From Planctopirus limnophila DSM 3776 (GTDB lineage Bacteria; Planctomycetota; Planctomycetia; Planctomycetales; Planctomycetaceae): 32,000 bases of DNA. The notes under the pieces were generated by a model, which saw nothing but the letters and a program-made list of their open reading frames with translations, was not told where the DNA came from and did not search any database. Numbering within the stretch: the first letter of the stretch is position 1; each line of letters starts with the position of its first letter. Made by a program: the position numbers and the translations under genes. The stretch covers positions 600,001-632,000 of the forward strand of contig NC_014148.1 in assembly GCF_000092105.1 (NCBI RefSeq), read 5' to 3'. Positions 2,864-31,954 of the stretch are shown here, in pieces.

Positions 2864-4939
2864 ATGATTCGTGACATTTCATCAATTCGCAACATTGGCA
2901 TTATTGCTCATATCGATGCAGGCAAAACGACCACTACCGAGCGCATCCTGTTCTATGCAGGCGAAATTCATAACCCTGGAAATGTGGATGATGGAAATAC
3001 CGTGACGGACTTTGATCCCGAGGAAGCTCAGCGGGGGATCACGATCTACTCGGCAGCCATCAGCTGCTCCTGGCGCGGTTGTTCTATCAACATTATTGAT
3101 ACTCCCGGGCACGTGGACTTTACTGCGGAAGTCCAGCGCAGCCTGCGGGTCCTTGATGGTGGCGTGGTCGTCTTCAGTGCGGTGGAAGGTGTCGAGGCTC
3201 AAAGCGAGACAGTCTGGCGCCAAGCGGATGGATTTAAGGTTCCGCGCATCTGCTTCATTAACAAGCTGGATCGGATCGGGGCTAATTTCGAGCGTGTGAT
3301 TGGTCAGATCACCGAGCGATTGCAGGGCGTTCCGTTAGTTCTTTCAATTCCTATCGGGAGTGGGCCAGCTACGAATTCTGACGGATTTACGGGGATCGTG
3401 GATCTGTTGCGAATGGAAGCGGTTTACTTTGATAAAGAGTCGAAGGGGAGGGAGATTCGCCGTGAGCCGATCCCTGCCGCCTGTCAGGATCTGGCGGATG
3501 ATTATCGCGTTCGGCTCATCGAGAGCGTAGCCATGCTCGATGACGATGTTTTTGCCGTGTATGACGAAACCGGGGATATTCCACTGGCCGATTTGAATCG
3601 TCTGATTCGTCAAGGCACGATCACGGGTCAGTTTCAGCCTCTATTGTGTGGGGCTTCACTGGATTACATCGGTGTGCAGCCGATTCTGGATGCTGTGGTG
3701 GATTATCTGCCCAGTCCACTGGATGTCCCGCCGGTGGAAGGTCGGCATCCGAAAAAAGAGAACATTGAAGTTCGCAAGCCGAATGAAAATGAACCATTCG
3801 CTGGCCTGGTCTTCAAAGTCCAGGTCGACGAGCATTCGGAGTTGTACTTCGTAAGGGTCTATTCGGGAGTGTTAAAAAGCCGCTCGCGAATGCTCAATCC
3901 TCGTACTGGCGAGAAAGAACTGATCAGCCAGTTATGGAAAATGCAGGCCGACTCCCGGGTGAAGCTCGATGAGGCGGGCGCTGGCGATATTGTGGGGGTC
4001 GTGGGGCCGAAGAGTTCTGTAACAGGGGACACTCTGTGTGAAGCGAATCAGCCGATTCTTCTGGAGTCAATCACATTCCCTGAGACTGTGATTTCGATGG
4101 CCATTGAGCCTGAGACGAGTGCTGATCGCAAAAAACTCGAAGAGACACTCAAGCTGCTGGCCAAGCAGGATCCCACATTCCGTGCGAAAGTCAGTGAAGA
4201 GACCGGCCAGACAATTGTCAGCGGCATGGGGGAATTGCACCTCGAAATTATCAGTAAACGGATGGAGCGTGACTTCCATCTGAAAATGAGAATTCATAAG
4301 CCTCGGGTAACCTATCGCGAAACGATCTGTAAAGCGGTGGAGTTTGAAGAAGTCTTTGAGCGGCAGGCGGGGGCGACATCGCTTTATGCGCTGATCAAGC
4401 TGCGGGCTGAACCTCTGGAGGGTGCTCAGTCCGTTGTGGTTGAAAACAAAATGAAACCTGGGGCATTCCCGGCCGAGTTGACTCAGGTGTTGATTCAGGC
4501 CATGAACGACGAATCCAAAAGTGGTGGAACGGTCGGTTATCCACTGATGAACATGAAGTTGCAGGTGCTGGGAGCCGGTTTTCGCGAAGGGGAAACCAAC
4601 GAAATCGCCGTTCGGGCTGCAGCGTCCAGTGCCGTGAGAAGAGTCCTTGATGAGGCGGGGGTAATGCTTCTGGAGCCTGTGATGAAGCTGGAAGTTGTTA
4701 CACCCAATGACTTTGTCGGGAATGTCACAGCCGATTTAAACTCCCGGCGTGCCTCGATTCTGAATACCGGGCTCAGAGGCAATCTGGTTGTGATTGAGGC
4801 GGAGGTTCCACTCTCGGGAATGTTTGGCTATTCGACCCAGGTGCGCAGTCTTTCGCAGGGGCGTGCCTCCTATTCCATGGAGCCACTGCGATTTGCGCCA
4901 GCCCCAGATTCCGTACTCAAAACAATGCTGGGTGAATGA
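2864..4939 (+). CDS. fusA: Translation elongation factor G
   Basis: 691 aa. G1 motif AHIDAGKTT, DTPGHVDF, NKLDR, and EF-G domains IV/V text (GELHLEI; RVTYRETI). Confidence 0.95.
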   Translation: MIRDISSIRNIGIIAHIDAGKTTTTERILFYAGEIHNPGNVDDGNTVTDFDPEEAQRGITIYSAAISCSWRGCSINIIDTPGHVDFTAEVQRSLRVLDGGVVVFSAVEGVEAQSETVWRQADGFKVPRICFINKLDRIGANFERVIGQITERLQGVPLVLSIPIGSGPATNSDGFTGIVDLLRMEAVYFDKESKGREIRREPIPAACQDLADDYRVRLIESVAMLDDDVFAVYDETGDIPLADLNRLIRQGTITGQFQPLLCGASLDYIGVQPILDAVVDYLPSPLDVPPVEGRHPKKENIEVRKPNENEPFAGLVFKVQVDEHSELYFVRVYSGVLKSRSRMLNPRTGEKELISQLWKMQADSRVKLDEAGAGDIVGVVGPKSSVTGDTLCEANQPILLESITFPETVISMAIEPETSADRKKLEETLKLLAKQDPTFRAKVSEETGQTIVSGMGELHLEIISKRMERDFHLKMRIHKPRVTYRETICKAVEFEEVFERQAGATSLYALIKLRAEPLEGAQSVVVENKMKPGAFPAELTQVLIQAMNDESKSGGTVGYPLMNMKLQVLGAGFREGETNEIAVRAAASSAVRRVLDEAGVMLLEPVMKLEVVTPNDFVGNVTADLNSRRASILNTGLRGNLVVIEAEVPLSGMFGYSTQVRSLSQGRASYSMEPLRFAPAPDSVLKTMLGE

Positions 4940-5112
4940 AGTCTCCGTTTCATCTCCGTATTTGAGCGTTTGGAACCAAAGCGAAAGAACTGTCAATCCC
5001 GGTTGATTGACATTCAAGGGTGGTGAATTTAGAATCTTCGCTCCGTCCATGAGTTCGCTTCTTGGATCGCTCATTGAAAAACGCGTAAGTTGCTGGCTGA
5101 AGGGAAGTTCGA

Positions 5113-5439
5113 GTGGTTGGTCAGAAGCAGGAAAAGATTCGTATCCGAATGGAAGCCTACGATCATTCGGTTCTCGATCTGTCGGCAAGCGAAATCGTGG
5201 ATACCGCAAAACGGACCGGAGCCATCGTTCATGGACCGATTCCGCTTCCAACTCGAATTGAGCGGTACACTGTGTTGCGGTCTCCGCACATTGACCGTAA
5301 GTCTCGAGAGCAGTTCGAGATTCGTACACACAAGCGATTGATTGATATTATTCAACCGACTGGCAAAACGATTGACGCGCTGAATAAGCTGTCTCTCCCT
5401 GCCGGTGTGGATGTGAAGATTAAGGCGACAGCCAGCTAA
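5113..5439 (+). CDS. rpsJ: 30S ribosomal protein S10
   Basis: 108 aa with a GTG start, [16 protein letters not shown]...[25 protein letters not shown]. Head of the S10 operon. Confidence 0.95.
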
Positions 5440-22819: not shown

Positions 22820-24886
22820 TCAGCTGGCTGTGGCCTCGCGTTCGATGTCATCCGAGTTGAACTGGACGTCGACCAGAGTTGTCACCGGGTACCCACTGCG
22901 GGGATTCTGACCTTTGCGGAACTGCAGTCGCCAGATGAGATTGCCGTTAAGTTCATCGATACCGCCGGCCTCGGAAGGGAGAAAAGTCTCAATAGACTCT
23001 CCCGGTGCGAGCGCAATCCCCAGGGGCATGTTGGCAATCGACACTTCATCTTGCAGAGGGAGTTCAAAAAGATTGATCACACCGGTATCTGACGCCAGTT
23101 GATCGGCCCACTTGATGAACTGATTGGCACGACTGCCAAATCGTCGATCACGAAAAAATACCAGCTCTCGATCCAAAGGGATAATGGTCTGATCCCGGCT
23201 GACATTCTTGAATCGAACGAGCAGCTTCAGAACTGGCTCGGTTGTTTCTGATGAGGAGTTCGAGGCATTCTGCACGATGCTGATCGGGCCGCGAGTGACT
23301 TTCAGTGGAGTCAATTCGATGTTGCCGAAGCGACGCGTCTGATTCAGTTTGAGGGTGTGTAGCGGGGCCACACGATTGTCGGGATTGATGAGTGTGACTG
23401 AGATGCCGGTGGCGGGCGGTTTGATATCCGGCAGGCTTTCGAGTTGATGGTAAGGTTGTCTCATGTATTGCACGATGAAAAAGAGAAGTGCAAGAGTCGA
23501 GGCACTGGCATAGCCCGCCAGCAGGAGAAAGAGTTGCCTGGAGACGACCTCTTCTTTTCGGAGAGATGCAGGATTCTCCGGAAAAGCGTCGGCAGTTCCG
23601 GCCGATAAACTTCCGACTGGCACAGGTTGCCTCGAGAACTGAAAATTACCCTCCTGAACTTTGTCTCCTGATCGTTTTTCTGATGTAGTTCCAGTGGAAA
23701 CCAGAGTGAGATCTTCACCGGTCGGAAAAGGTTGGGCCAGTTGGGAGAAGCTGGATAGCTGTTGGACATCCAGATTCGTCTCGGGGGTTTGTGCAGCCAC
23801 TAACGGCTGATCAAGATTTGAGAGAAAAGCGAGCGATTGATCTTCGGCGGAGTTGATTTCCGTACCTGCGGAGATCGATGGCGCATTTGATGTGGCGACG
23901 GCTGGGAAATCGGGGGTTGCTGAATCTCCGTGACCTTGCGTCGTTACGTCAACAGTCATCGAAGGTTCTGTGAGATTCATGGCAGGCTCTGCTGTCATGA
24001 GCCCAACGCCGGCTGTCTGTCGAATGAGTTCGGCCAGTTGTGGTGATGACTGGGAGAAGTGATCTGTTTCCGGATCGCTGGTATGAAGATCGTTGCTGAG
24101 GGATGGATCGATCGTTGTGGCTATGGTGTGGCCTGGTAGACCAGCCGGAGAACTATAGCTGTCATCTGCAAGTGTTGGATTTAGAGTCTCTTCAGTCACG
24201 GCAGGGAATGATTCACTGATTTCCTGCAAACTGGAATGGGGGGCGATCACTGGCTGTGAGTCGGGTATGAAGTCGAACACCACCTCTTCTTCCGGCTCGC
24301 TGGTCACGGCATGGGCTGGTTCAAAAGAAGGCATGCCAGGAAGAGATTCTGCCGGCACTGTTTCCGCGATGATTGATCCCAGACTTGGAATGGGGAGCTC
24401 ATCCATCCCGGGAAGATGTGGGCTCGGAAATACAAAAGACTGCAAATCATCATGATGTTCGCCAGGGCCTGAGGGCTCTGTCGAGGATGGAACAGTCTGG
24501 AGAAAATCGAAGTTGACGGTCGCCGGACTTGTTGCGCCTGTCGGGCTGTCGATAGCAGGTATGAACGGAGGCAAGAAATCTTTTGAGGCCATCGGGGAGG
24601 AAGTTGTATTGGTCGAAAAATCAGGCTGAGGTATGGATGACAGAAAATCCGGGATTGATGCTGATCCAGGGAAATTCTTGGCAGGGGCACCAAGCTGAGA
24701 AAAATCAAATGTCGAATCGATGCTCTCTGCTTCGGAACTCACCGGAGCGACAGGCTCGGACTCCACGGGGATTTCTGATTGAACTTCGAGATGGGCACCG
24801 CACTCGGGGCACTCCACAACCACATTTCCTTCGGCCTCGACCATCATCGGGTTTTGACAGGAGCCGCAGATAATCTCAAATGGCAT
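22820..24886 (-). CDS. Zinc-ribbon / disordered linker / single-TM / C-terminal domain protein
   Basis: 688 aa. The N-terminus has CGSC...(16 aa)...CPEC (a zinc ribbon). About 400 aa of Pro/Ser/Thr/Glu-rich low complexity follow. One TM helix (LFLLLAGYASASTLALLFFIV) precedes a folded C-terminal domain of about 200 aa. Confidence 0.65.
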   Translation of the reverse strand: MPFEIICGSCQNPMMVEAEGNVVVECPECGAHLEVQSEIPVESEPVAPVSSEAESIDSTFDFSQLGAPAKNFPGSASIPDFLSSIPQPDFSTNTTSSPMASKDFLPPFIPAIDSPTGATSPATVNFDFLQTVPSSTEPSGPGEHHDDLQSFVFPSPHLPGMDELPIPSLGSIIAETVPAESLPGMPSFEPAHAVTSEPEEEVVFDFIPDSQPVIAPHSSLQEISESFPAVTEETLNPTLADDSYSSPAGLPGHTIATTIDPSLSNDLHTSDPETDHFSQSSPQLAELIRQTAGVGLMTAEPAMNLTEPSMTVDVTTQGHGDSATPDFPAVATSNAPSISAGTEINSAEDQSLAFLSNLDQPLVAAQTPETNLDVQQLSSFSQLAQPFPTGEDLTLVSTGTTSEKRSGDKVQEGNFQFSRQPVPVGSLSAGTADAFPENPASLRKEEVVSRQLFLLLAGYASASTLALLFFIVQYMRQPYHQLESLPDIKPPATGISVTLINPDNRVAPLHTLKLNQTRRFGNIELTPLKVTRGPISIVQNASNSSSETTEPVLKLLVRFKNVSRDQTIIPLDRELVFFRDRRFGSRANQFIKWADQLASDTGVINLFELPLQDEVSIANMPLGIALAPGESIETFLPSEAGGIDELNGNLIWRLQFRKGQNPRSGYPVTTLVDVQFNSDDIEREATAS

Positions 24887-25115: not shown

Positions 25116-26753
25116 TTACAGTTCGATCGCTTCCACTTCAGCCACGAATCGCTGGTTGTTGTCAGCGAGGAATGCACTGATCACGTTGAACACGGCGTCA
25201 CTGAAGCCACCGATGTTCATGATGTCAGTTCGCTCACAAGCCTGGACTGTCTGGTACGGCTGCAAGTCGATGTTAATCAACTTCGGTGGGGCAGCTTTTC
25301 GGCTCAGCTTTCGCTGGTTCGATGAAAAAGCTTCCCAGGCCGTCATCACACCGGTTGAACCGTGCCGTCCTGTTCCGACCCAACTCTCGTTATCGCTCAC
25401 GAGAACCATGCCGGCGAACTTTCGTCTCGCATACTTCTGGTTGGCAACAACCAGTGGCAGCGAACAATCCGTTCCGCCACCGCCGTACTTCGCCAATCGC
25501 TGAGCAATGCTCAGGATCGAATCGTTGGGATCGATCTTCACATCGTAAGCCGACGTATCGAACGGAATCACAACGCTGGCCGGGTTACGCCTGAGGATCG
25601 CTGCTGCGAACAGTGCTGCCACGTCGATGCAGCGCATCTTCGAAGTTGCACCTCGTCCACGGTTCCCAGTGACCGGGCTGCTCATTGATCCAGATGTATC
25701 CAGACCAATCACCACCGGTCCCGGCAACTCCGGTACGTTTCCACAGGCGATCTCGGCGGCCTTATGCAGTGCAGTCTTGATCTTCTGCGGAACGTTGTCG
25801 TCTGCGTTCAAGTACGCAGCAAAGTACTGGTACGGGAACTGCTTGGAGCGTTGAATCTCCGTCTTGTCAGCGATCCGGTCAGCCACGTAATCAACCATTG
25901 CACTTGTGGCGAGCACATCGTGTCGCAGCAAAGTGTTCAAGTTCATACGTAGTGCCTGCGGACCCATCTTGCGAGCCAGAACTGCCCAAACCTTCGGTCC
26001 CCTGGCGGCATCGGACAACAAGTCCCAGCGGACGATGTCGAGTCCACCAGCGATCAAGGCCTGCGCTTCTTCGCTTTCCGACTTGCGGTACGCGATCAGC
26101 GACTGAACTTCGACCGGCAGGTCGGCTTCCGTGGCGGGTGCCCACTTGTCGATGCTCTTATCGGTCAACCAACCGAACATCGCCCGGCGAGCGTTGTCCT
26201 TAGGTGTCGGTCGAGCCATACGCAGGATATCCCGCAAGCTCGGATCGTTACCGATAGACGCGCTCAACAGCTTTCCAACCGAGGCGGTGTTTAGCCAACG
26301 CTGGAAGGCTCGCTGCACAGAGCTCGACAAGCCAACGCGACTCTTACCGGCCTTGTTCTTGAACTGACCTGAGCGAATCATCTGGAACACAGTTCGCAGA
26401 ACGCGACCGTTGTCGACCACGCGATCGAAGACGCGATGCATCAACTCGGTATCACGAACTGACAGCGCGACCAGCAATGCAGCCGGCATGTCTTTCATGA
26501 ACGCTTTCTCACGAGCATAGAGAGCCAGCTTCGCCAGGTACTGGTTGTCGTCGACTGTGTCGATCAACTTGAGCACTTCGTCGAGCTGTGATTCTGCAGT
26601 ACTGTAGAACGCGTTGTTGAAGGTGCCGGTAGCAGCCACCTGGGCCAGCGCGTGTTTAGGTTCGAGTTGATATGCGAGGCCACCGGCTTCGTTGACGGCG
26701 TTGGCCTTCGGGAGTCGGCCAAGTATGCTTGCGAAAAGAGACATGTTTGCCAT
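25116..26753 (-). CDS. rsr: Ro 60-kDa autoantigen orthologue (Rsr): TROVE domain plus vWA domain
   Basis: 545 aa. The N-terminal text ([30 protein letters not shown]; [20 protein letters not shown]) is typical of bacterial Ro/TROVE proteins. The C-terminal vWA domain has the MIDAS motif [12 protein letters not shown]. Confidence 0.85.
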
Positions 26754-26771: not shown

Positions 26772-26789
26772 GAAGTTCGAAGTTTGAAA
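26772..26789. repeat. Left arm of an 18-bp perfect inverted repeat bracketing the four-helix-bundle gene
   Basis: GAAGTTCGAAGTTTGAAA is the exact reverse complement of 27187..27204. It belongs to the same family as the palindromes in the tRNA-array spacers. Confidence 0.9.
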
Positions 26790-26837: not shown

Positions 26838-27185
26838 ATGAAGAGCGATTTACCTGATAGAACGTTCGCGTTTGCAGAAAGAATTGTGCGGTTTTGTATG
26901 TTCTTGGAGCAAAATGGCAGAGTGTCAACAACATTGGCAACGCAACTGCTTAGGTCGGGTACATCGGTGGGAGCCAACGTTGAGGAAGCTGGAGCATCAG
27001 AGAGCCGCAAAGACTTCATTCACAAGTATGCAATCGCTTGCAAAGAGGCACGCGAGTCTCATTACTGGCTTCGTCTATTGGCCGTGTCAGAGGTCGTTCC
27101 AAAAGATCGATTAGAACTACTCACGAGTGAAGCAAATGAACTCATCGCTATTTTGACAACGATCATCAAGAAGTCGCGAGAATGA
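26838..27185 (+). CDS. Four-helix-bundle protein (23S rRNA intervening-sequence protein family)
   Basis: 115 aa. The text F..RI..F...L......[17 protein letters not shown]....S.KDFIHK..IA.KEARES.YWLRLL is diagnostic of this family. It is the only + strand gene in the island. Confidence 0.85.
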
Positions 27186-27186
27186 A

Positions 27187-27204
27187 TTTCAAACTTCGAA
27201 CTTC
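27187..27204. repeat. Right arm of the 18-bp inverted repeat
   Basis: TTTCAAACTTCGAACTTC begins 2 nt after the four-helix-bundle stop codon. Confidence 0.9.
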
Positions 27205-27486: not shown

Positions 27487-27723
27487 TCACTTCAGCGATC
27501 TTGAAGGCATTAAAGCCGGAATCCGGTCCATGTTCGCATCGACGAGTTCCTCGATAATGCTCCCTAGAGTGGTTCTGTTGCCAGAGCTGAAGGGTAGATT
27601 CGCGTCAAGGTCGATAAGCATGCAGTGCCGATGCGTATTATATGGACGTTTGGTCTTTTCCAAGCCATATCCGTGATTCTTGTACTGAAGCGAATGGCGC
27701 CATCGATGTTTCTCACTCGTCAT
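27487..27723 (-). CDS. Hypothetical small ORF overlapping the RNA ligase stop (possibly a gene remnant)
   Basis: 78-aa ORF whose ATG overlaps the ligase 3' end by 11 nt. No recognisable motif. Other frames further downstream on the - strand (lower coordinates) give only short open stretches, so this may be a decayed gene. Confidence 0.25.
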   Translation of the reverse strand: MTSEKHRWRHSLQYKNHGYGLEKTKRPYNTHRHCMLIDLDANLPFSSGNRTTLGSIIEELVDANMDRIPALMPSRSLK

Positions 27724-28774
27724 ACTTCACAAGAAAGGCGGGGTTAATCGCTTTAAAGCTTAATCGTCCCCCCGTGTCCGGCTCGAATGTTTCCGATATG
27801 GGACGGAGAACGATTCCTTCGCGCAAGGTGGATGAGTTCAAAACACTTTTTCCTTCGGCGAGCTTAATCAGTTCGTCGATGGAATGGTTCAGTGTCACCT
27901 TTTCGAGGAATGGTACCGCCACGAGACCAAGCGACTTAATCACCTCTTGCATTTGATCGAAGTCCAACAGCATCCCGGTCGTTAAGTTCACGACATTAAA
28001 AATTCTCAGTGTCACAAACTCGAGCCGGTATTTATTGCCCTGGATTCCCGGGCCAATCATCTCTCCTTGAACCGCCAGGTCGAAGCCTAGTTGCTTTGAC
28101 ATTTCAGCCAGCTTTTCCCTCAAATGGAATGACTCGGCAATGGCGACATACTTCGATGTGCCATCCATCTCGTCAATCCACTGATTGCGGCTGCAGATGC
28201 CGAACTGAGACTGATAATGGAATGCCGTGAAGGAACTTCCATCGAGCTTTTCGGTGACAATCAACTCTTTTCCTTTGTGTCGCTCGAGTGCGTCTGCGAG
28301 CAGCTGAACACGAGTTTCATCTGTTTTGGGCACAAAGCTTGGAAACGGACCTTTAATCTTGCCAACCATACCAGCAGGTATAGGGGGCTCCCATTTCACG
28401 ATGCCGAGCTCGGCAGTGACTTCAGTGCCGAGCGGCAGGTGATCACCGTTCGGCACCAGGGAAACGGGAAAACAAATTCCTTGTGAATATTGTCCGCGGA
28501 GTTTGATTGTGCGAATTCGGAAACCAGCTGGTACCGCAATGCGACCGGTCGCATCGATTTGTGCGGGCTTGAAGCAATTGCTACGGAGAAACTCGAATTC
28601 TGAACGCTCGGGAAGGAGTGAGTCGATTTCACAATAGATGATTTTGTCACCGACGCGATACTCTCCGCGCTTGACCACAACCGCCCAACCCAAAATCCTT
28701 GCCAGTTCAATCGAGTCTGCATTTGTGATTGGCTCGATGGCTGAAATTGTCTGTATGGTTGCCAGTTTTCGCAT
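27713..28774 (-). CDS. ATP-dependent RNA ligase, DraRnl (DRB0094) type
   Basis: The ORF opens at 28813, but MRKLATIQTISAIEPITNADSIELARILGWAVVVKRGEYRVGDKIIYCEIDSLLP (ATG at 28774) is the characteristic N-terminal OB-like module of this family. The nucleotidyltransferase motif I lysine lies in TEKLDGSS. Confidence 0.8.
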   Translation of the reverse strand: MRKLATIQTISAIEPITNADSIELARILGWAVVVKRGEYRVGDKIIYCEIDSLLPERSEFEFLRSNCFKPAQIDATGRIAVPAGFRIRTIKLRGQYSQGICFPVSLVPNGDHLPLGTEVTAELGIVKWEPPIPAGMVGKIKGPFPSFVPKTDETRVQLLADALERHKGKELIVTEKLDGSSFTAFHYQSQFGICSRNQWIDEMDGTSKYVAIAESFHLREKLAEMSKQLGFDLAVQGEMIGPGIQGNKYRLEFVTLRIFNVVNLTTGMLLDFDQMQEVIKSLGLVAVPFLEKVTLNHSIDELIKLAEGKSVLNSSTLREGIVLRPISETFEPDTGGRLSFKAINPAFLVKYDE

Positions 28775-28826
28775 GTTTTTTGAGATTTGGAGTAAAGGAA
28801 GATGAGCAGTCATTTTGGTTTACGAG

Positions 28827-28896
28827 CAGGAACGCAGTGATTCGAACACTGTCCATCGGTTTTGGAGGCCGAGTCCGCTCCCAGGCGAACATTCCT
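28827..28896 (-). tRNA. tRNA-Trp (anticodon CCA), no encoded CCA end
   Basis: Manual cloverleaf: AGGAATG T TCGC-CTGGGA-GCGG AC TCGGC CTCCAAA ACCGA TGGA CAGTG TTCGAAT CACTG CGTTCCT G. It has the A1-U72 pair and G73 typical of bacterial tRNA-Trp. The D region is compact and there is a C31xA39 mismatch. Confidence 0.7.
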
Positions 28897-29222: not shown

Positions 29223-29753
29223 TCATGCATCATCCTGACTTTTCGAAACAGGCTCGGGTCCACTCCTGCTCAGACGATCGACAAGTGCGAGAATCGTGGG
29301 AGTCCTGTAACTTCCGTGCATCTCGCTCACGCACCTTGCCGCTTCGCTTTCGTTGGTTCCCACTGCTGTGATCCAGAGTGGTCTCGAACTTTTCCCCCGA
29401 TAAACTTCAATCGCGTTTTTTGCTGTCGCAAACGAAGTCTTGGCCACACCGATCACCGGGACTTGACCTTCAAGTAACTCGAACAGGTGAGCACCCAACC
29501 CCCTTTTTCCGTTGGCATCGAGCCATACGTATCCGTCGACAACGATAAGGCTTGGTTTGGCAACAAGCTGATTCAGTACTGCCTTTATGCATGGCAGTTC
29601 GCGTTTGTAAAATTCTCCAGGGATGTAATCTTCGATGCTCGGAATCTCGACCGTGTGACTCCCCTGTGGCAACTCTGCCTTCCAATCGGAGATTGTGACG
29701 CATGCCGCCAGCGCAGATTGCACTTGATATCCGACATCGACGCAAGCGATCAC
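29223..29753 (-). CDS. nfi: Endonuclease V family protein (short form)
   Basis: 176 aa, GTG start preceded by AAAGGAGG. It aligns by eye to EndoV blocks: VDVGY (catalytic Asp), YIPGEFYKRELP (Glu), LIVVDGYVW (Asp), PVIGVAKT (Lys), PLWITAVG. It lacks about 30 N-terminal residues of E. coli Nfi. Confidence 0.7.
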   Translation of the reverse strand: MIACVDVGYQVQSALAACVTISDWKAELPQGSHTVEIPSIEDYIPGEFYKRELPCIKAVLNQLVAKPSLIVVDGYVWLDANGKRGLGAHLFELLEGQVPVIGVAKTSFATAKNAIEVYRGKSSRPLWITAVGTNESEAARCVSEMHGSYRTPTILALVDRLSRSGPEPVSKSQDDA

Positions 29754-29772: not shown

Positions 29773-29917
29773 AACACCTGACGAGGTTGTGGCCAGAGTT
29801 ATTACCTCGACGGACGCAAAGCGACCTTCGAGGTTCCGGCCCATTGTTACATTAACGAGTGGACCGGGCGGGAATCGAACCTGCTAAACCATGTACTCCG
29901 AACCGGCAGTCAAGTGT
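29773..29917 (-). ncRNA. Structured RNA B: Y-RNA-like stem plus permuted tRNA-like domain (paralogue of RNA A)
   Basis: On the - strand the parts run in this order. Basal helix ACACUUGAC / GUCAGGUGU (9 bp, one G-U). Internal loop UGCCGGU / CCACAACCUC. Helix UCGGAGU / ACUCUGG. T-arm GCAGG-UUCGAUU-CCCGC. The acceptor 3' strand CCGGUCC pairs with GGGCCGG across an 18-nt closing loop. A long hairpin (CCUCGA...UCGAGG) replaces the D-arm. The RNA ends 20 nt before the EndoV start codon. Confidence 0.5.
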
Positions 29918-29918
29918 T

Positions 29919-30082
29919 GTTTCAAAACGATCGATGAAGAGATGTGTCAGAGGGTTTACGGCGCTCTACCACTGAGCTACGGCGCAATGAACTAAATCAA
30001 AGTTGCGCCAGTGGGATTCGAACCCACGACTTCCGGCTTATCAGGCTGTGCTCCAACTCGGCAGTCGATCGTTGTTTGAGAC
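29919..30082 (-). ncRNA. Structured RNA A: candidate YrlA-type Y RNA with a circularly permuted tRNA-like domain
   Basis: On the - strand the parts run in this order. Basal helix GUCUCAA-[AC bulge]-AACGAUCGA / UCGAUCGUU-UUGAAAC. Internal loop CUGCCGAG / CACAUCUCUUCA. Helix UUGGAG / CUCUGA. Anticodon-loop-like heptamer CUGAUAA. T-arm GUGGG-UUCGAAU-CCCAC. The acceptor 3' strand UGGCGCA is closed by a 17-nt loop onto the 5' strand UGCGCCG (7 bp). A fully canonical U8 A9 and D-arm GCUC-AGUGGUA-GAGC follow. Confidence 0.55.
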
Positions 30083-30156
30083 TTTAGGATTCAGGTTCCA
30101 GGTATCAGGTGTGGATTTCCTGAAGACTGACACCTGACTCCTAAAGACTGTTCTAG

Positions 30157-30228
30157 TAGCTCGACCAGGAGTCGAACCTGGAACTTCTCGTTAGAAGCGA
30201 GAGGTGATATCCACTTCACCATCGAGCT
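30157..30228 (-). tRNA. tRNA-Arg (anticodon UCU)
   Basis: AGCTCGA TG GTGA-AGTGGATA-TCAC C TCTCG CTTCTAA CGAGA AGTT CCAGG TTCGACT CCTGG TCGAGCT A. All stems are perfect. No CCA is encoded. Confidence 0.85.
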
Positions 30229-30234
30229 GCGAGC

Positions 30235-30279
30235 AGTCTTGAGGAGGGAGACTTGAGTCTGAAGAAAATCCTCAAGACT
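30235..30279. repeat. Spacer hairpin (11-bp perfect inverted repeat)
   Basis: AGTCTTGAGGA (30235..30245) pairs with TCCTCAAGACT (30269..30279), between tRNA-Ser(GCU) and tRNA-Arg(UCU). Confidence 0.8.
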
Positions 30280-30309
30280 CACATCTCACTCCTCACTACT
30301 GTTTTTGAG

Positions 30310-30395
30310 CGGAAGGTAAGGGATTCGAACCCATATAGCACGAATGCTGCACTGTTTAGCAAACAGGCCCGGCCAACCATATCCGGCTACCTTCC
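30310..30395 (-). tRNA. tRNA-Ser (anticodon GCU), type II
   Basis: 86 nt. Acceptor GGAAGGT/ACCTTCC, G73, anticodon loop TTGCTAA. The long variable arm is GCAGCATTCGTGCTAT (AGCA-TTCG-TGCT) and the T-loop is TTCGAAT. Position 8 is A, and there are single mismatches in the T and anticodon stems. Confidence 0.75.
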
Positions 30396-30398
30396 AAT

Positions 30399-30474
30399 TC
30401 AGGTTTCTGACCTCGGGTTTCAGAATTCAGGTTTTGAAATTCCTGAAGCCTGATAACTGACTCCTGAAACCTGA
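30399..30474. repeat. Spacer hairpins of the CAGGTTTC/GAAACCTG family
   Basis: Outer stem TCAGGTTTC (30399..30407) / GAAACCTGA (30466..30474). An inner stem TTCAGG...CCTGAA is also present. Confidence 0.7.
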
Positions 30475-30478
30475 TGAG

Positions 30479-30552
30479 TGACGCAGGCGGGATTTGAACC
30501 CGCAATCACGAAGGTTTAAGCTTCGCCGCTATTCCAATTCGCGTACCGCGTC
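30479..30552 (-). tRNA. Type I (short variable arm) tRNA with Leu anticodon UAA
   Basis: GACGCGG TA CGCG-AATTGGAAT-AGCG G CGAAG CTTAAAC CTTCG TGATT GCGGG TTCAAAT CCCGC CTGCGTC A. 74 nt with a 5-nt variable loop. U8, A14 and G18G19 are present. Confidence 0.7.
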
Positions 30553-30570
30553 GGAAAAAGTTTGAATTGA

Positions 30571-30620
30571 GAAGTGTGAAGTGTGAAATTTCAAACGTCG
30601 AACTTCACAATTCACACTTC
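30571..30620. repeat. Spacer palindrome of the GAAGT/ACTTC family
   Basis: 17-bp stem GAAGTGTGAAGTGTGAA / TTCACAATTCACACTTC (1 mismatch) with a 16-nt loop. Confidence 0.8.
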
Positions 30621-30624
30621 CAAA

Positions 30625-30697
30625 CGGCCTGCCAAGGAATCGAACCTTGTCTGAAAGTTTCGAAGACTCTCGTGCGAATCCATCACACTCGCGGGCC
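30625..30697 (-). tRNA. tRNA-Arg (anticodon UCG), non-canonical details
   Basis: GGCCCGC GA GTGT-GATGGATTC-GCAC G AGAGT CTTCGAA ACTTT CAGA CAAGG TTCGATT CCTTG GCAGGCC G. It has a C5xA68 mismatch, and positions 8 and 14 are G instead of U and A. Confidence 0.6.
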
Positions 30698-30745
30698 CTA
30701 TCAACACGTATCAGGGGGAAGGCATCAGGTTTCAGGAAGAGGAAA

Positions 30746-30817
30746 TATCCTTGCCAGGAGTTGAACCTGGTCCGTAACCTTCGCAGGGTTAAATGCAGTC
30801 CCTTACACCTCAAGGAC
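30746..30817 (-). tRNA. tRNA-Arg (anticodon GCG)
   Basis: GTCCTTG AG GTGT-AAGGGACT-GCAT T TAACC CTGCGAA GGTTA CGGA CCAGG TTCAACT CCTGG CAAGGAT A. It has a G1-U72 pair and A at position 8. Confidence 0.65.
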
Positions 30818-30851
30818 ATTAAATGGAACCTGAATCCTGAAACGTGATTAG

Positions 30852-30924
30852 TGGTGCAGGGGGGATTCGAACCCACAAACACTTGTTTCTAAAACAAGCC
30901 GCTCAGCCGCTGGCGTACTGCACC
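30852..30924 (-). tRNA. Type I (short variable arm) tRNA with Leu anticodon UAG
   Basis: GGTGCAG TA CGCC-AGCGGCTG-AGCG G CTTGT TTTAGAA ACAAG TGTTT GTGGG TTCGAAT CCCCC CTGCACC A. 73 nt with a 5-nt variable loop and one U50xC64 mismatch. Confidence 0.7.
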
Positions 30925-30934
30925 GAAAGAATTG

Positions 30935-30993
30935 TGAATTGAGAAGTTAGAACTGTGAAGTGGGAAGTTTCAAACTTCAAACTTCTGAATTCA
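30935..30993. repeat. Spacer palindrome of the GAAGT/ACTTC family
   Basis: Outer stem TGAATTGAGAAGTT / AACTTCTGAATTCA (1 mismatch). The inner palindrome is GAAGTTTCAAACTTC (30964..30978). Confidence 0.75.
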
Positions 30994-31003
30994 AACTTCC
31001 GAG

Positions 31004-31078
31004 CGACCCATACCGGATTTGAACCGGTGATCTCCGCCGTGACAGGGCGGCGTCCACTCCAGGCTGGACCAATAGGCC
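31004..31078 (-). tRNA. tRNA-Asp (anticodon GUC)
   Basis: GGCCTAT TG GTCC-AGCCTGGAGT-GGAC G CCGCC CTGTCAC GGCGG AGATC ACCGG TTCAAAT CCGGT ATGGGTC G. It has G73 and two G-U pairs in the acceptor stem. Confidence 0.8.
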
Positions 31079-31089
31079 GTAAACAAAAG

Positions 31090-31161
31090 AGGCGCTACCG
31101 AGATTCGAACTCGCGATCAGCGTGTTTTGCAGACACGCCCCGCACCAAGCGGATTAGCGCC
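31090..31161 (-). tRNA. tRNA-Cys (anticodon GCA)
   Basis: Acceptor GGCGCTA/TAGCGCC with U73 (a Cys identity element). Anticodon arm CGTGT-CTGCAAA-ACACG, T-arm GCGAG-TTCGAAT-CTCGG, compact D-arm CCGC-TTGGT-GCGG. Confidence 0.75.
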
Positions 31162-31170
31162 GTGATTAAA

Positions 31171-31243
31171 TCGTCCTGGACAGACTCGAACTGTCGATCG
31201 ACTGTTTGTAAGACAGATGCCTTCGCCGCTAGGCCACAGGACG
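31171..31243 (-). tRNA. tRNA-Val (anticodon UAC)
   Basis: CGTCCTG TG GCCT-AGCGGCGA-AGGC A TCTGT CTTACAA ACAGT CGATC GACAG TTCGAGT CTGTC CAGGACG A. Confidence 0.8.
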
Positions 31244-31259
31244 ATGCGTTTAAAAAGAG

Positions 31260-31341
31260 CGGAAGACCAGGGACTCGAACCCCGAAGCGCCAGGCGCCAG
31301 CCGTTTTCAAGACGGTTTCCTCATCCAGCCGGATGTCTTCC
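31260..31341 (-). tRNA. tRNA-Ser (anticodon UGA), type II
   Basis: 82 nt. Acceptor GGAAGAC/GTCTTCC, G73, anticodon loop CTTGAAA, variable arm with stem GCGC-CTG-GCGC (loop CUG on the - strand RNA), T-arm CGGGG-TTCGAGT-CCCTG. Confidence 0.75.
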
Positions 31342-31345
31342 AGAT

Positions 31346-31401
31346 CAGGTTTCAGGCATCAGGGATCAGGCTTCAGAGCGAGAAGGGGGACCTGAAACCT
31401 G
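31346..31401. repeat. Spacer hairpin of the CAGGTTTC/GAAACCTG family
   Basis: 11-bp perfect inverted repeat CAGGTTTCAGG (31346..31356) / CCTGAAACCTG (31391..31401). Confidence 0.8.
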
Positions 31402-31414
31402 AAGTCTGGCAAAG

Positions 31415-31488
31415 GGTGACCGATCGGAATTGAACCGACATCGACCTGGTTCACAGCCAGGTTCCTGAAACCAATACAGGACGGCCAC
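31415..31488 (-). tRNA. tRNA-His (anticodon GUG)
   Basis: Acceptor GTGGCCG/CGGTCAC with C73. Anticodon arm CCTGG-CTGTGAA-CCAGG, T-arm GTCGG-TTCAATT-CCGAT. The genomic nucleotide at position -1 is U, not G. Confidence 0.75.
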
Positions 31489-31490
31489 AT

Positions 31491-31565
31491 TGCCGGAGGC
31501 AGGAATCGAACCTGCGAGCTTCTGGTTCAGAGCCAGACGCAACGACCAACAGTTGCTACTCCGGT
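31491..31565 (-). tRNA. tRNA-Gln (anticodon CUG)
   Basis: Acceptor ACCGGAG/CTCCGGC (A1xC72 unpaired). D-arm GCAA...TTGC, anticodon arm TCTGG-CTCTGAA-CCAGA, T-arm GCAGG-TTCGATT-CCTGC. Confidence 0.7.
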
Positions 31566-31582
31566 AATTTGATATCTATCAA

Positions 31583-31654
31583 CCCGGGCGGAAGGAGTTG
31601 AACCTTCATACCACTGCTTCAAAGGCAGTTGGCTTACCATTAGCCGACATCCGA
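31583..31654 (-). tRNA. tRNA-Gln (anticodon UUG)
   Basis: D-arm GGCT-AATGGTA-AGCC, anticodon arm ACTGC-CTTTGAA-GCAGT, T-arm GAAGG-TTCAACT-CCTTC. The acceptor TCGGATG/CGCCCGG is weak (one AxC mismatch and two G-U pairs). Confidence 0.6.
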
Positions 31655-31672
31655 ACAACCTTCATCAAACAG

Positions 31673-31818
31673 AGTGCCATGTCGGAGTCGAACCGACCTG
31701 ACCGAATTGGAAGGTTTTTCACGTTGTTTCATGATCGACTTCGTTGGGGAATCAATCGTTGCACAACGTGTGACTTTCCGGCCACCTTTAAAAACCTTTG
31801 CCGCTCGGCCAATGGCAC
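31673..31818 (-). tRNA. 146-nt tRNA-like gene with a structured insertion of about 75 nt in the anticodon-arm position
   Basis: Perfect 7-bp acceptor GTGCCAT/ATGGCAC. Type-II-like 5' half TGGCCGAGCGGCAAAGG. T-arm GTCGG-TTCGACT-CCGAC. Between them lies a 9-bp helix AAGGTTTTT/AAAAACCTT enclosing an 8-bp helix CACGTTGT/ACAACGTG and a 6-bp helix GATTGA/TCGATC. No 7-nt anticodon loop is identifiable. Confidence 0.45.
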
Positions 31819-31829
31819 GGTGGGAGTTT

Positions 31830-31858
31830 GAAGTTCGAAGTTTCAAACTTCGAACTTC
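31830..31858. repeat. Uninterrupted copy of the palindrome that is split around the four-helix-bundle gene
   Basis: GAAGTTCGAAGTTT-C-AAACTTCGAACTTC has 14-nt arms identical to the outer 14 nt of the arms at 26772..26789 and 27187..27204. Confidence 0.85.
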
Positions 31859-31879
31859 TCAATTCACACTTCTGAAAGG

Positions 31880-31954
31880 CTCCGGCGGCAGGAATCGAAC
31901 CTGCGTCCAGGCGATTAACAGTCGCCTTCCCGTACCAGCACAGGACCCACCGGA
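31880..31954 (-). tRNA. tRNA-Asn (anticodon GUU)
   Basis: TCCGGTG GG TCCT-GTGCTGGTAC-GGGA A GGCGA CTGTTAA TCGCC TGGAC GCAGG TTCGATT CCTGC CGCCGGA G. It has the U1-A72 pair and G73 of tRNA-Asn. Position 8 is G. Confidence 0.7.

Follow-up and report, generated by a model that had tools for sequence, protein, structure and literature searches.

The 32,000-nucleotide (nt) stretch of the Planctopirus limnophila DSM 3776 chromosome analyzed here (NC_014148.1, positions 600,001 to 632,000; hereafter the window) carries near one end a dense array of tRNA genes; downstream of it, in the same orientation, lie two predicted Y RNA genes and the gene of a Ro60 protein. ARAGORN finds 14 tRNA genes at positions 30156-31954, all on the minus strand. 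Along that strand the order is Asn-GUU, a disrupted Gly-UCC, Gln-UUG, Gln-CUG, His, Ser-UGA, Val-UAC, Cys, Asp, Leu-UAG, Arg-GCG, Arg-UCG, Leu-UAA, Ser-GCU and Arg-UCU, exactly as in the original prediction, which had also expected the array to run past the window edge. It does so on the Logan contig L001, the exact reverse complement of the window (0 mismatches over 12,778 nt), which reaches 6.6 kb beyond it and adds Gly-GCC, Lys-CUU, Ile-UAU, Lys-UUU, Ile-GAU, Ala-UGC and a deviant Pro-UGG (L001 5633-5706). The latter has a non-canonical T-loop, is missed by ARAGORN at default settings, and is 93% identical to the Pro-UGG genes of the arrays L093 and L009. The full array thus comprises about 22 genes, to which a separate tRNA-Trp is added.

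Such assemblies have been named 'tRNA array units' (Tran et al. 2016, PMC4758250) or, as long tRNA arrays, 'L-arrays' (Santamaria-Gomez et al. 2021, PMC8421152), and both surveys already reported examples from Planctomycetes. The P. limnophila array falls within the definition of a tRNA array unit (at least 20 genes, at least 2 per kb): 20 ARAGORN genes, excluding the deviant Pro-UGG and the disrupted Gly-UCC, occupy 3.05 kb (L001 5458-8510; 6.6 per kb), 14 of them in the 1.8 kb inside the window. As in L-arrays, all genes have the same orientation, here the minus strand, and are closely spaced (1-431 nt). Ten of the 14 in-window genes pass the gathering score of the Rfam tRNA model. Arg-UCG attains 25.5 bits, Cys is not reported, and both Ser genes match best as class II or selenocysteine (Sec)-like tRNAs. 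The array is genuine, although generic models give low scores to a considerable portion of its genes.

Comparison with relatives reveals what is being conserved. Between P. limnophila and Planctopirus hydrillae, identity amounts to 94% in the tRNA genes and to 71% in the spacers. In alignments of the orthologs of 21 array members, 84.5-100% of the stem cells are paired, a proportion that drops to 33-58% after a one-column shift of the 3' partner. Compensatory double changes are present in every one of these members, the low-scoring Cys, Ile-GAU, Trp and Ala included, at 3-17 pairs each. The array genes are therefore structurally constrained RNAs rather than pseudogenes, with the disrupted Gly-UCC as the sole exception.

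The two Y RNA genes lie directly downstream of the last array tRNA and 3.0-3.3 kb upstream of Ro60, on the same strand as both. Their layout is that of YrlA: a terminal and a second stem separated by an internal loop, followed by the T-arm, the acceptor-like hairpin and the D-arm. Their scores of 37.6 and 22.6 bits, like the 48.6-49.2 bits in relatives, stay below the YrlA (RF02553) gathering score of 69 bits. An RNAalifold consensus of six seeds from four Planctopirus genomes, with compensatory changes in the terminal stem, served to build a covariance model, R1, which was applied to a wider set of loci. A scan of a genome collection with a diverse Ro60 alignment yielded 80 loci, all from Planctomycetota and with 62-93% Ro60 identity; together with those of Planctopirus they amount to 84. 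R1 has 281 matches in these loci, all on the Ro60 strand, and the best 150 lie at a median of 528 nt upstream of Ro60 across 73 loci, 48 of which have at least two. In the alignment of the best 150 matches (148 distinct) 94.7% of the cells are paired, versus 35-43% after sliding, and double changes occur at 25 of 30 pairs; the alignment was fitted to the model, which somewhat inflates the pairing figure, and the margin is very large. In a mycobacteriophage, R1 also detects the Y RNA that is expected immediately upstream of the Ro-like gene (50.8 bits).

The tRNA genes follow the same polarity. Within the 84 loci, 499 kb upstream of Ro60 contain 596 tRNA genes, 593 of them on the Ro60 strand, versus 6 in 540 kb downstream. 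Where at least 8 kb of upstream sequence is available (40 loci), at least 5 tRNAs are present in 22 loci, at least 10 in 18 and at least 20 in 14, and Y RNA-like units separate the array from Ro60. This succession of array, Y RNAs and Ro60 is stereotyped in Planctomycetota. The linkage of the array to Y RNAs, ligase and Ro60 is the most telling property of the P. limnophila locus and lies just beyond the positions that the original prediction covered. Ro60 itself scores 83 bits with the NCBIfam Rsr equivalog model, far below its cut-off of 900, and is therefore assigned to a divergent clade. Table 1 lists the features of the locus.

Table 1 Features of the P. limnophila tRNA array-Y RNA-Ro60 locus, in window positions, with the evidence for each
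Feature	Position	Strand	Evidence
tRNA-Asn(GUU), G8, low generic score	31878..31954	-	ARAGORN; Rfam 29.7 bits; orthologs 94.6% paired, 8 compensatory pairs
Disrupted tRNA-Gly(UCC), the 'tRNA-like gene' of the original prediction	31672..31818	-	Joined halves 86% identical to intact Gly-UCC of L013/L017
tRNA-Gln(UUG), A5×C68	31582..31655	-	ARAGORN; Rfam 54.1 bits; ortholog covariation
tRNA-Gln(CUG), A1×C72	31490..31566	-	ARAGORN; Rfam 50.3 bits; ortholog covariation
tRNA-His(GUG)	31414..31488	-	ARAGORN; Rfam 39.8 bits; 17 compensatory pairs among orthologs
tRNA-Ser(UGA), class II, A8	31259..31341	-	ARAGORN; Rfam; ortholog covariation
tRNA-Val(UAC)	31170..31244	-	ARAGORN; Rfam 63.5 bits; ortholog covariation
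tRNA-Cys(GCA), A8, missed by the Rfam tRNA model	31089..31161	-	ARAGORN; orthologs 99% paired, 10 compensatory pairs
tRNA-Asp(GUC)	31003..31078	-	ARAGORN; Rfam 55.3 bits; ortholog covariation
tRNA-Leu(UAG), class I (short variable arm), A73	30851..30924	-	ARAGORN; family covariation at 15/20 pairs
tRNA-Arg(GCG), A8, G34 in place of the usual bacterial A34/I34 (I, inosine)	30745..30818	-	ARAGORN; Rfam 45.9 bits
tRNA-Arg(UCG), G8, C5×A68	30625..30697	-	ARAGORN; Rfam 25.5 bits; orthologs 97.8% paired, 11 compensatory pairs
tRNA-Leu(UAA), class I, A73	30478..30552	-	ARAGORN; Rfam 56.7 bits; family covariation
tRNA-Ser(GCU), class II, A8	30309..30395	-	ARAGORN; Rfam; ortholog covariation
tRNA-Arg(UCU), last gene of the array	30156..30228	-	ARAGORN; Rfam 63.1 bits; ortholog covariation
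Y RNA 1 (YrlA-like)	29928..30071	-	Rfam YrlA 37.6 bits; own model R1 130.7 bits; family covariation
Y RNA 2 (same family, degenerate D-arm)	29775..29916	-	Rfam YrlA 22.6 bits, full length; R1 119.6 bits; conserved in P. ephydatiae
Ro60 ortholog (TROVE + vWA)	25116..26753	-	PF05731 + PF25045; 100% identical to P. limnophila TROVE protein
tRNA-Trp(CCA), atypical, apart from the array	28826..28896	-	ARAGORN; Rfam 28 bits; 96-100% identical across Planctopirus; 10 compensatory pairs
Putative EndoV-like protein, short, 176 aa; motifs VDV, RE, DGY, GVAK kept	29223..29753	-	PF04493, E = 5.9e-13; PDB 3goc, E = 1.9e-7
Predicted Rnl5-family ATP-dependent RNA ligase (DraRnl/NgrRnl type)	27713..28813	-	TIGR02306; PDB 5cot; PF21189 + PF09414
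Intergenic spacers with heptamer-periodic palindromes, 60-80-nt hairpins between tRNAs	30229..31877	-	Repeat families, motif enrichment, folding
'23S rRNA intervening-sequence (IVS) protein' open reading frame (ORF), four-helix bundle	26838..27185	+	PF05635; TIGR02436

In other planctomycetes, Y RNA-like units are repeated in tandem immediately upstream of Ro60, up to 7-8 of them when weaker matches are included (L061 8955-9979, L049 8014-9978 and many other loci). The bacteria studied so far are described with one to four Y RNAs.

The composition of the arrays is far from random. The 21 arrays with at least ten genes contain five duplicate anticodons among 489 tRNAs, whereas random draws from the pooled anticodon frequencies would give 129 ± 7.5, which upholds the prediction that the array does not consist of random duplicates. 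The fullest arrays contain 40 different anticodons for 19 amino acids, without tRNA-Met, and have their gene order in common with the P. limnophila array. Therefore, the sequences point to a single ancestral array of about 40 genes, from which P. limnophila would have retained 21-22 anticodons for 14-15 amino acids. The proposal that the set is self-contained does not hold: of the 20 amino acids, P. limnophila covers the 14-15 just mentioned, with Met, Phe, Tyr, Thr and Glu missing and Gly-UCC disrupted, and even the fullest arrays of relatives do without tRNA-Met. The related proposal of a minimal, superwobble-style set applies in part. For the four-codon boxes, P. limnophila has mostly retained the tRNA with U34 (Ala, Val, Ser, Leu, Pro), which fits a minimal-decoder logic, while the fuller arrays carry isoacceptor triplets with G34, U34 and C34 instead.

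A tRNA with A34 requires editing by TadA, and Ile-CAU requires TilS. Throughout the family A34 is found in just 3 of 591 array genes; 22 Arg-GCG genes stand against a single Arg-ACG, and Ile-UAU occurs 12 times. Because A34 is nearly absent and Arg-GCG and Ile-UAU are used, the repertoire looks designed to bypass both enzymes, and we infer that the array set avoids dependence on host editing by TadA and TilS. A connection between the EndoV-like protein and inosine in tRNA-Arg was considered as the cause of the Arg-GCG usage; it is not favored, since Arg-GCG is found family-wide and EndoV is limited to a few loci.

The tRNAs deviate from standard rules at individual positions, which were renumbered from the T-arm, since ARAGORN at times draws an eighth acceptor pair. 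With this numbering the predicted stem mismatches A1×C72 in Gln-CUG and C5×A68 in Arg-UCG are present, as are the predicted departures at positions 8 and 14: U8 is missing in 8 of 21 members and A14 in several. The anticodon loops are canonical, with U33 in 92% and A37 in 90%. No member encodes CCA, again as predicted, but this does not distinguish the array; CCA is encoded in 1 of 593 array tRNAs family-wide and in none of eight non-array tRNAs from related planctomycete loci, and its absence is a trait of the host phylum. The two bases 3' of the discriminator are C-U in 483 of 593 (81%) array tRNAs and in 5 of 8 non-array tRNAs, and may serve as a 3'-processing signal in CCA-less planctomycete tRNA genes.

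The leucine tRNAs form a special case. tRNA-Leu is a class II tRNA whose determinants for leucyl-tRNA synthetase (LeuRS) are A73 and the core formed by U8-A14, G18-U55 and G19-C56, and deletion of its variable arm mainly reduces affinity (PMC2377443). With 73 nt (Leu-UAG) and 74 nt (Leu-UAA) and variable loops of 4-5 nt, the two P. limnophila genes lack the variable arm of more than 10 nt that marks class II. They belong to a family of 46 distinct class I sequences of 72-78 nt with the anticodons UAA, UAG, CAA, GAG and, in a few, CAG. A73 is present in 44 of the 46, U8 and G18G19 are kept, as is a conserved U8-A9-CGC...GCG D-arm, and 15 of 20 stem pairs show compensatory change. The Ser, Tyr and most of the Leu-CAG genes of the same arrays keep long variable arms. 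Since the LeuRS determinants reside in A73 and the core and loss of the variable arm mainly lowers affinity, leucine identity of these RNAs is plausible. They would constitute an exception to the textbook class II rule, of consequence for LeuRS recognition and for the engineering of orthogonal tRNAs.

The array is supernumerary and dispensable in the laboratory. P. limnophila was annotated originally with 61 tRNA genes and later with 66-74, and Planctoellipticum, a relative without the excess, has 54, 'at least 20 fewer'. Supernumerary status, a defining property of L-arrays, is taken here from these published counts, and the comparison of array with housekeeping tRNAs from the eight non-array tRNAs of related loci. 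Transposon mutagenesis and a genome-wide essentiality map are available for P. limnophila (PMC10632474). The transposon-sequencing supplement places just 11 of the 61 tRNA locus tags (Plim_R0013-R0023) in the array, so that about 50 tRNA genes lie elsewhere; the reading of the array as simply the host's main tRNA operon, named beforehand as fatal to the original prediction, thereby falls away. The insertion indices of the 11 genes range from 0.014 to 0.069, and 9 of the 11 have at least 0.04, within the paper's non-essential range. The Ro60, ligase and EndoV-like genes were likewise scored non-essential. Together with the 58% identity of the array Asn to the housekeeping Asn of a sister genome, these data bear out the assignment of the genes to the array or phage type rather than to the housekeeping type.

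Several observations connect the module with mobile elements and phages. Within the genus Planctopirus it resides in differing chromosomal contexts and has 5 to 32 tRNA genes, and across relatives 5 to 40. The L093 module adjoins a large serine recombinase, two ParB-like genes and homing-endonuclease genes, and HNH endonuclease genes are found at the module in relatives. The variable contexts and content, the L093 element and the divergent Asn match the horizontal transfer and patchy distribution by which L-arrays are recognized. A gene for a PTH2-type peptidyl-tRNA hydrolase lies beside Ro60 in L006 (11741-12139), L009 (15035-15433), L093, L011, L013 and L016, and is absent from the P. limnophila copy. 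The closest phage Ro60, from Myxococcus phage Mx1 (40% identity), is surrounded by 26 co-oriented tRNAs and likewise adjoined by peptidyl-tRNA hydrolase and HNH endonuclease genes. Around 80 Ro60 loci of IMG/VR the flanks contain 618 tRNAs in 1.41 Mb, in clusters on either side of Ro60, and a 90%-identical Ro60 is encoded on an IMG/VR 'viral' contig. When the DNA of the array region was compared with deposited phages at the level of near-identity, a single match emerged, a 60-nt stretch of tRNA-Asp (window 31013-31072) that shares 93% identity with its counterpart in Gordonia phage Sixama.

These properties are to be weighed against several explanations. The array could be the host's main housekeeping tRNA operon, placed beside ribosomal-protein operons; it lies about 10 kb from rplQ/rpoA in both P. 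limnophila and P. hydrillae, and its genes are under purifying selection. The additional 50 or so tRNA genes, the transposon insertions in array genes, the absence of 5-6 amino acids including Met, the low generic tRNA scores and the divergent Asn contradict this explanation, as does P. ephydatiae, which has only 5 array genes in another chromosomal context. Since the array is supernumerary and dispensable in the laboratory, the housekeeping operon is largely refuted already and retains virtually no probability. An active prophage whose tRNAs match its own codon usage during lytic growth is very unlikely as well. The Mx1 Ro60 amid its 26 tRNAs and the 90%-identical Ro60 on the 'viral' contig would agree with it; however, capsid, terminase, tail and integrase genes are absent among the large ORFs of the 32-kb window and the genes called in the 6.6 kb beyond, the flanks consist of ribosomal operons and ordinary chromosomal genes, and the locus is syntenic between two species.

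More serious is the proposal that the array is the decaying remnant of a tRNA cluster from a phage or mobile element and has no function in this host. The disrupted member, the range from 5 to 40 genes among relatives, the dispensability of the module in the laboratory, its occurrence in phages and on a recombinase-bearing element, and the failure to find phage structural genes nearby all agree with a remnant. A remnant does not account for tRNAs that are far better conserved than their spacers, for pairing-preserving compensatory changes in every member, for the maintenance of anticodon non-redundancy, or for the retention of the module with Ro60 over several planctomycete families, at Ro60 identities of 62-93%. 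These features require ongoing selection, and we regard decay without function as improbable. Selection might instead act on tRNA-shaped ligands, that is, on RNAs serving mainly as decoys or sponges for nucleases that target tRNAs, or as substrates or partners of the Ro60-Y RNA particle, with the array as the source of the tRNA-like Y RNAs. The tight directional coupling of the array to the Y RNAs and Ro60, the permuted tRNA mimicry of the Y RNAs themselves, the frequent departures at the core tertiary positions U8 and A14, and the stable fold of the disrupted Gly-UCC, a tRNA body from which a long arm extends, speak for such a role. Decoys would not need one gene per anticodon, near-complete codon coverage or retained identity elements such as A73 of the class I Leu tRNAs, and the canonical anticodon loops also argue against them, so that this explanation, too, is given a low probability.

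In the model that we favor with moderate confidence, the locus is the P. limnophila copy of a conserved, horizontally spread module, derived from a mobile element or phage, in which an auxiliary, supernumerary L-array is combined with Y RNAs and Ro60 and coupled to RNA repair and quality control. The P. limnophila copy in addition contains genes predicted to encode an EndoV-like protein and an Rnl5-type nick-sealing ligase. Polycistronic precursors would be transcribed from the minus strand; host RNases (RNase P, RNase Z and possibly RNase III) would cleave the spacer hairpins and the tRNA ends, and the host enzyme would add CCA. The liberated tRNAs would form an auxiliary, non-redundant elongator set that is free of host-specific editing, with no A34/inosine and with Ile-UAU in place of lysidine-modified CAU. 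With this set, decoding could continue after damage to the housekeeping tRNAs or their depletion, as caused for instance by translational stress or by toxins that cleave tRNAs, and misfolded or nicked RNAs would be dealt with by Ro60-Y RNA and the ligase. A role in keeping translation going upon damage to the normal tRNA pool is likely by analogy to the L-array of Anabaena, whose induction under translational stress is accompanied by that of rtcB (PMC8421152), and to the jumbo phages, described as provisioning tRNAs, RNA ligases and TROVE proteins (Iyer et al. 2021, PMC7824862).

A number of findings weigh against this model. Family-wide, 37% of the array tRNAs lack U8 and 41% lack A14, and their folding or aminoacylation could suffer from it. 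That no phenotype is seen in the laboratory would also agree with a module that has no function at all under most conditions. The P. limnophila set is incomplete, with one gene disrupted, and P. ephydatiae keeps only 5 genes plus Trp; the module therefore can decay without obvious cost. A scan for sigma-70 promoters gave nothing above background and no recognizable promoter. Since only a few of the planctomycete loci carry the ligase and EndoV genes, both are accessory to the module, and two IVS-protein (bAvd-like) genes lie antisense within the array-Ro60 unit.

A more far-reaching version of the model is rather doubtful and is put forward as a speculation. According to it the array is a second decoding kit conserved in Planctomycetota, a mobile elongator set with a single copy per anticodon, independent of TadA and TilS and equipped with class I Leu tRNAs, that would be expressed as one unit with the tandem Y RNAs and Ro60; the particle would serve the maturation, surveillance or repair of the kit, and the Y RNAs would have arisen from array tRNAs. 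If so, the Ro60-Y RNA particle would be dedicated to an alternative tRNA pool.

The locus shares properties with three known systems and differs from each. Like long tRNA arrays, such as the trn operon of Anabaena PCC 7120, the P. limnophila array has at least 20 co-oriented genes at more than 2 per kb, is supernumerary and patchy among close relatives, and has counterparts that adjoin HNH homing endonucleases in relatives; such arrays are rarely periodic. The Anabaena array is co-regulated with the RNA ligase gene rtcB, and an RNA ligase is also the partner here, though of the Rnl5 type instead of RtcB. Unlike known L-arrays, the planctomycete arrays share their orientation with Y RNA genes and Ro60, to which they are physically coupled phylum-wide, and their set is strictly non-redundant, without A34 and with Ile-UAU and class I Leu. 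The second system comprises the bacterial Rsr-Y RNA loci, among them rsr-yrlBA-rtcBA of Salmonella and Rsr/Yrn1/PNPase of Deinococcus (Chen et al. 2014, PMC4201824; Hughes et al. 2020, PMC7790460), in which tRNA-mimicking Y RNAs are likewise encoded just upstream of Ro60, with an RNA ligase nearby. The YrlA architecture is reproduced with covariation in the planctomycete Y RNAs. In contrast to the Salmonella locus, RtcB, RtcA and RtcR are absent among the island ORFs scanned with Pfam, NCBIfam and PHROGs, the YrlA scores are sub-gathering, and a full tRNA array lies upstream; the tandem runs of Y RNA-like units in other planctomycetes also set them apart from known Rsr loci. The 2014 survey of Y RNAs deliberately dropped matches that overlapped tandem tRNA genes (Chen et al., PMC4201824).

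The third system is that of large phages (Mx1 and, with 'Ro-like' proteins, Mycobacterium cluster C and Streptomyces BE phages), in which tRNA clusters, Ro60/TROVE, peptidyl-tRNA hydrolase, HNH endonucleases and ATP-dependent RNA ligases co-occur; Mx1 also has Leu tRNAs of 74-77 nt. The P. limnophila copy differs by its chromosomal location, with phage structural genes not found nearby, and the array, Y RNA, Ro60 order is fixed in Planctomycetota, in contrast to phages, in which clusters occur on either side of Ro60. A literature search retrieved no paper combining 'Ro60' and 'tRNA array'. What appears to be described here for the first time is the directional array-Y RNA-Ro60 module, along with the strict non-redundancy of the set, its avoidance of anticodons that depend on editing, and its class I Leu tRNAs. 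The phylum-wide directional coupling, which large phages share, joins long tRNA arrays, known but for the most part cryptic, and bacterial Ro60-Y RNA particles with their tRNA-like Y RNA domain in one testable hypothesis, auxiliary tRNAs combined with RNA surveillance and repair.

Of the proteins encoded between the array and Ro60, the ligase is by sequence a predicted member of the Rnl5 family, with an N-terminal OB domain and a nucleotidyltransferase domain, a TIGR02306 score of 190.2 bits above the equivalog cut-off of 151.15, and a match to NgrRnl of Naegleria (5cot, E = 8e-62). The EndoV-like protein stays under the NCBIfam equivalog cut-offs.

The disrupted Gly-UCC contains an insertion of about 70 nt that forms a hairpin and replaces the 5' strand of the anticodon stem. 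It folds stably (z-score -3.9), is 92% conserved in P. hydrillae and is absent elsewhere. ARAGORN with the intron option reads it as a 'Stop-UUA' tRNA with a 71-nt intron; its interpretation as an intron-containing suppressor or Tyr tRNA was dropped because the halves match the intact Gly-UCC of related arrays.

The spacers contain two families of palindromes, (GAAGTTT)n/(AAACTTC)n and (TCAGGNT)n/(ANCCTGA)n, whose motifs are enriched (18 versus 0.8 expected and 21 versus 1.3 expected) and essentially restricted to the island; hairpin folds with z-scores of -3.4 to -6.7 are obtained for seven of the eight longer spacers. The IVS-protein ORF of the window is flanked by a perfect 18-nt inverted repeat of the spacer motif (26772-26789 and 27187-27204), and a second one just past the window edge (L001 6285-6706) is likewise bracketed by spacer-motif inverted repeats. 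This arrangement resembles the ORFs in rRNA intervening sequences and, by analogy, suggests processing of the RNase III type. Both ORFs have low transposon insertion indices (0.019-0.020) and were scored essential or unclear, unlike their neighbors. Weak Rfam matches to 'Plastid-ycf2' and similar models on the plus strand (30156-30228, 30002-30040) are most likely artefacts of tRNA-like antisense sequence.

The remainder of the window is the chromosomal rpoC, rpsL-rpsG-fusA and S10-spc-alpha cluster. The window as a phage is ruled out by its rpoC, str, S10, spc and alpha operons, and PHROGs and Pfam revealed no genes for phage structure, packaging or integration among the large ORFs of the window or the genes called upstream. 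No tuf gene lies between fusA and rpsJ (window 4939-5113), where the str and S10 operons are adjacent at a distance of about 170 nt. A 688-aa protein encoded 3' of Ro60 (22820-24886, minus strand) is shared with P. hydrillae only; it has a faint N-terminal zinc-ribbon match and no informative family match in Pfam, PHROGs, NCBIfam or PADLOC. Upstream of the array (L001 1209-4792) a 507-aa MotA/ExbB-like protein is encoded that weakly matches ZorA of the Zorya anti-phage system (E = 2.4e-7), the only PADLOC match among the island proteins. The next two genes encode proteins of 278 and 372 aa that have no assigned function and are conserved in P. hydrillae, and this segment may be a defense system flanking the island.

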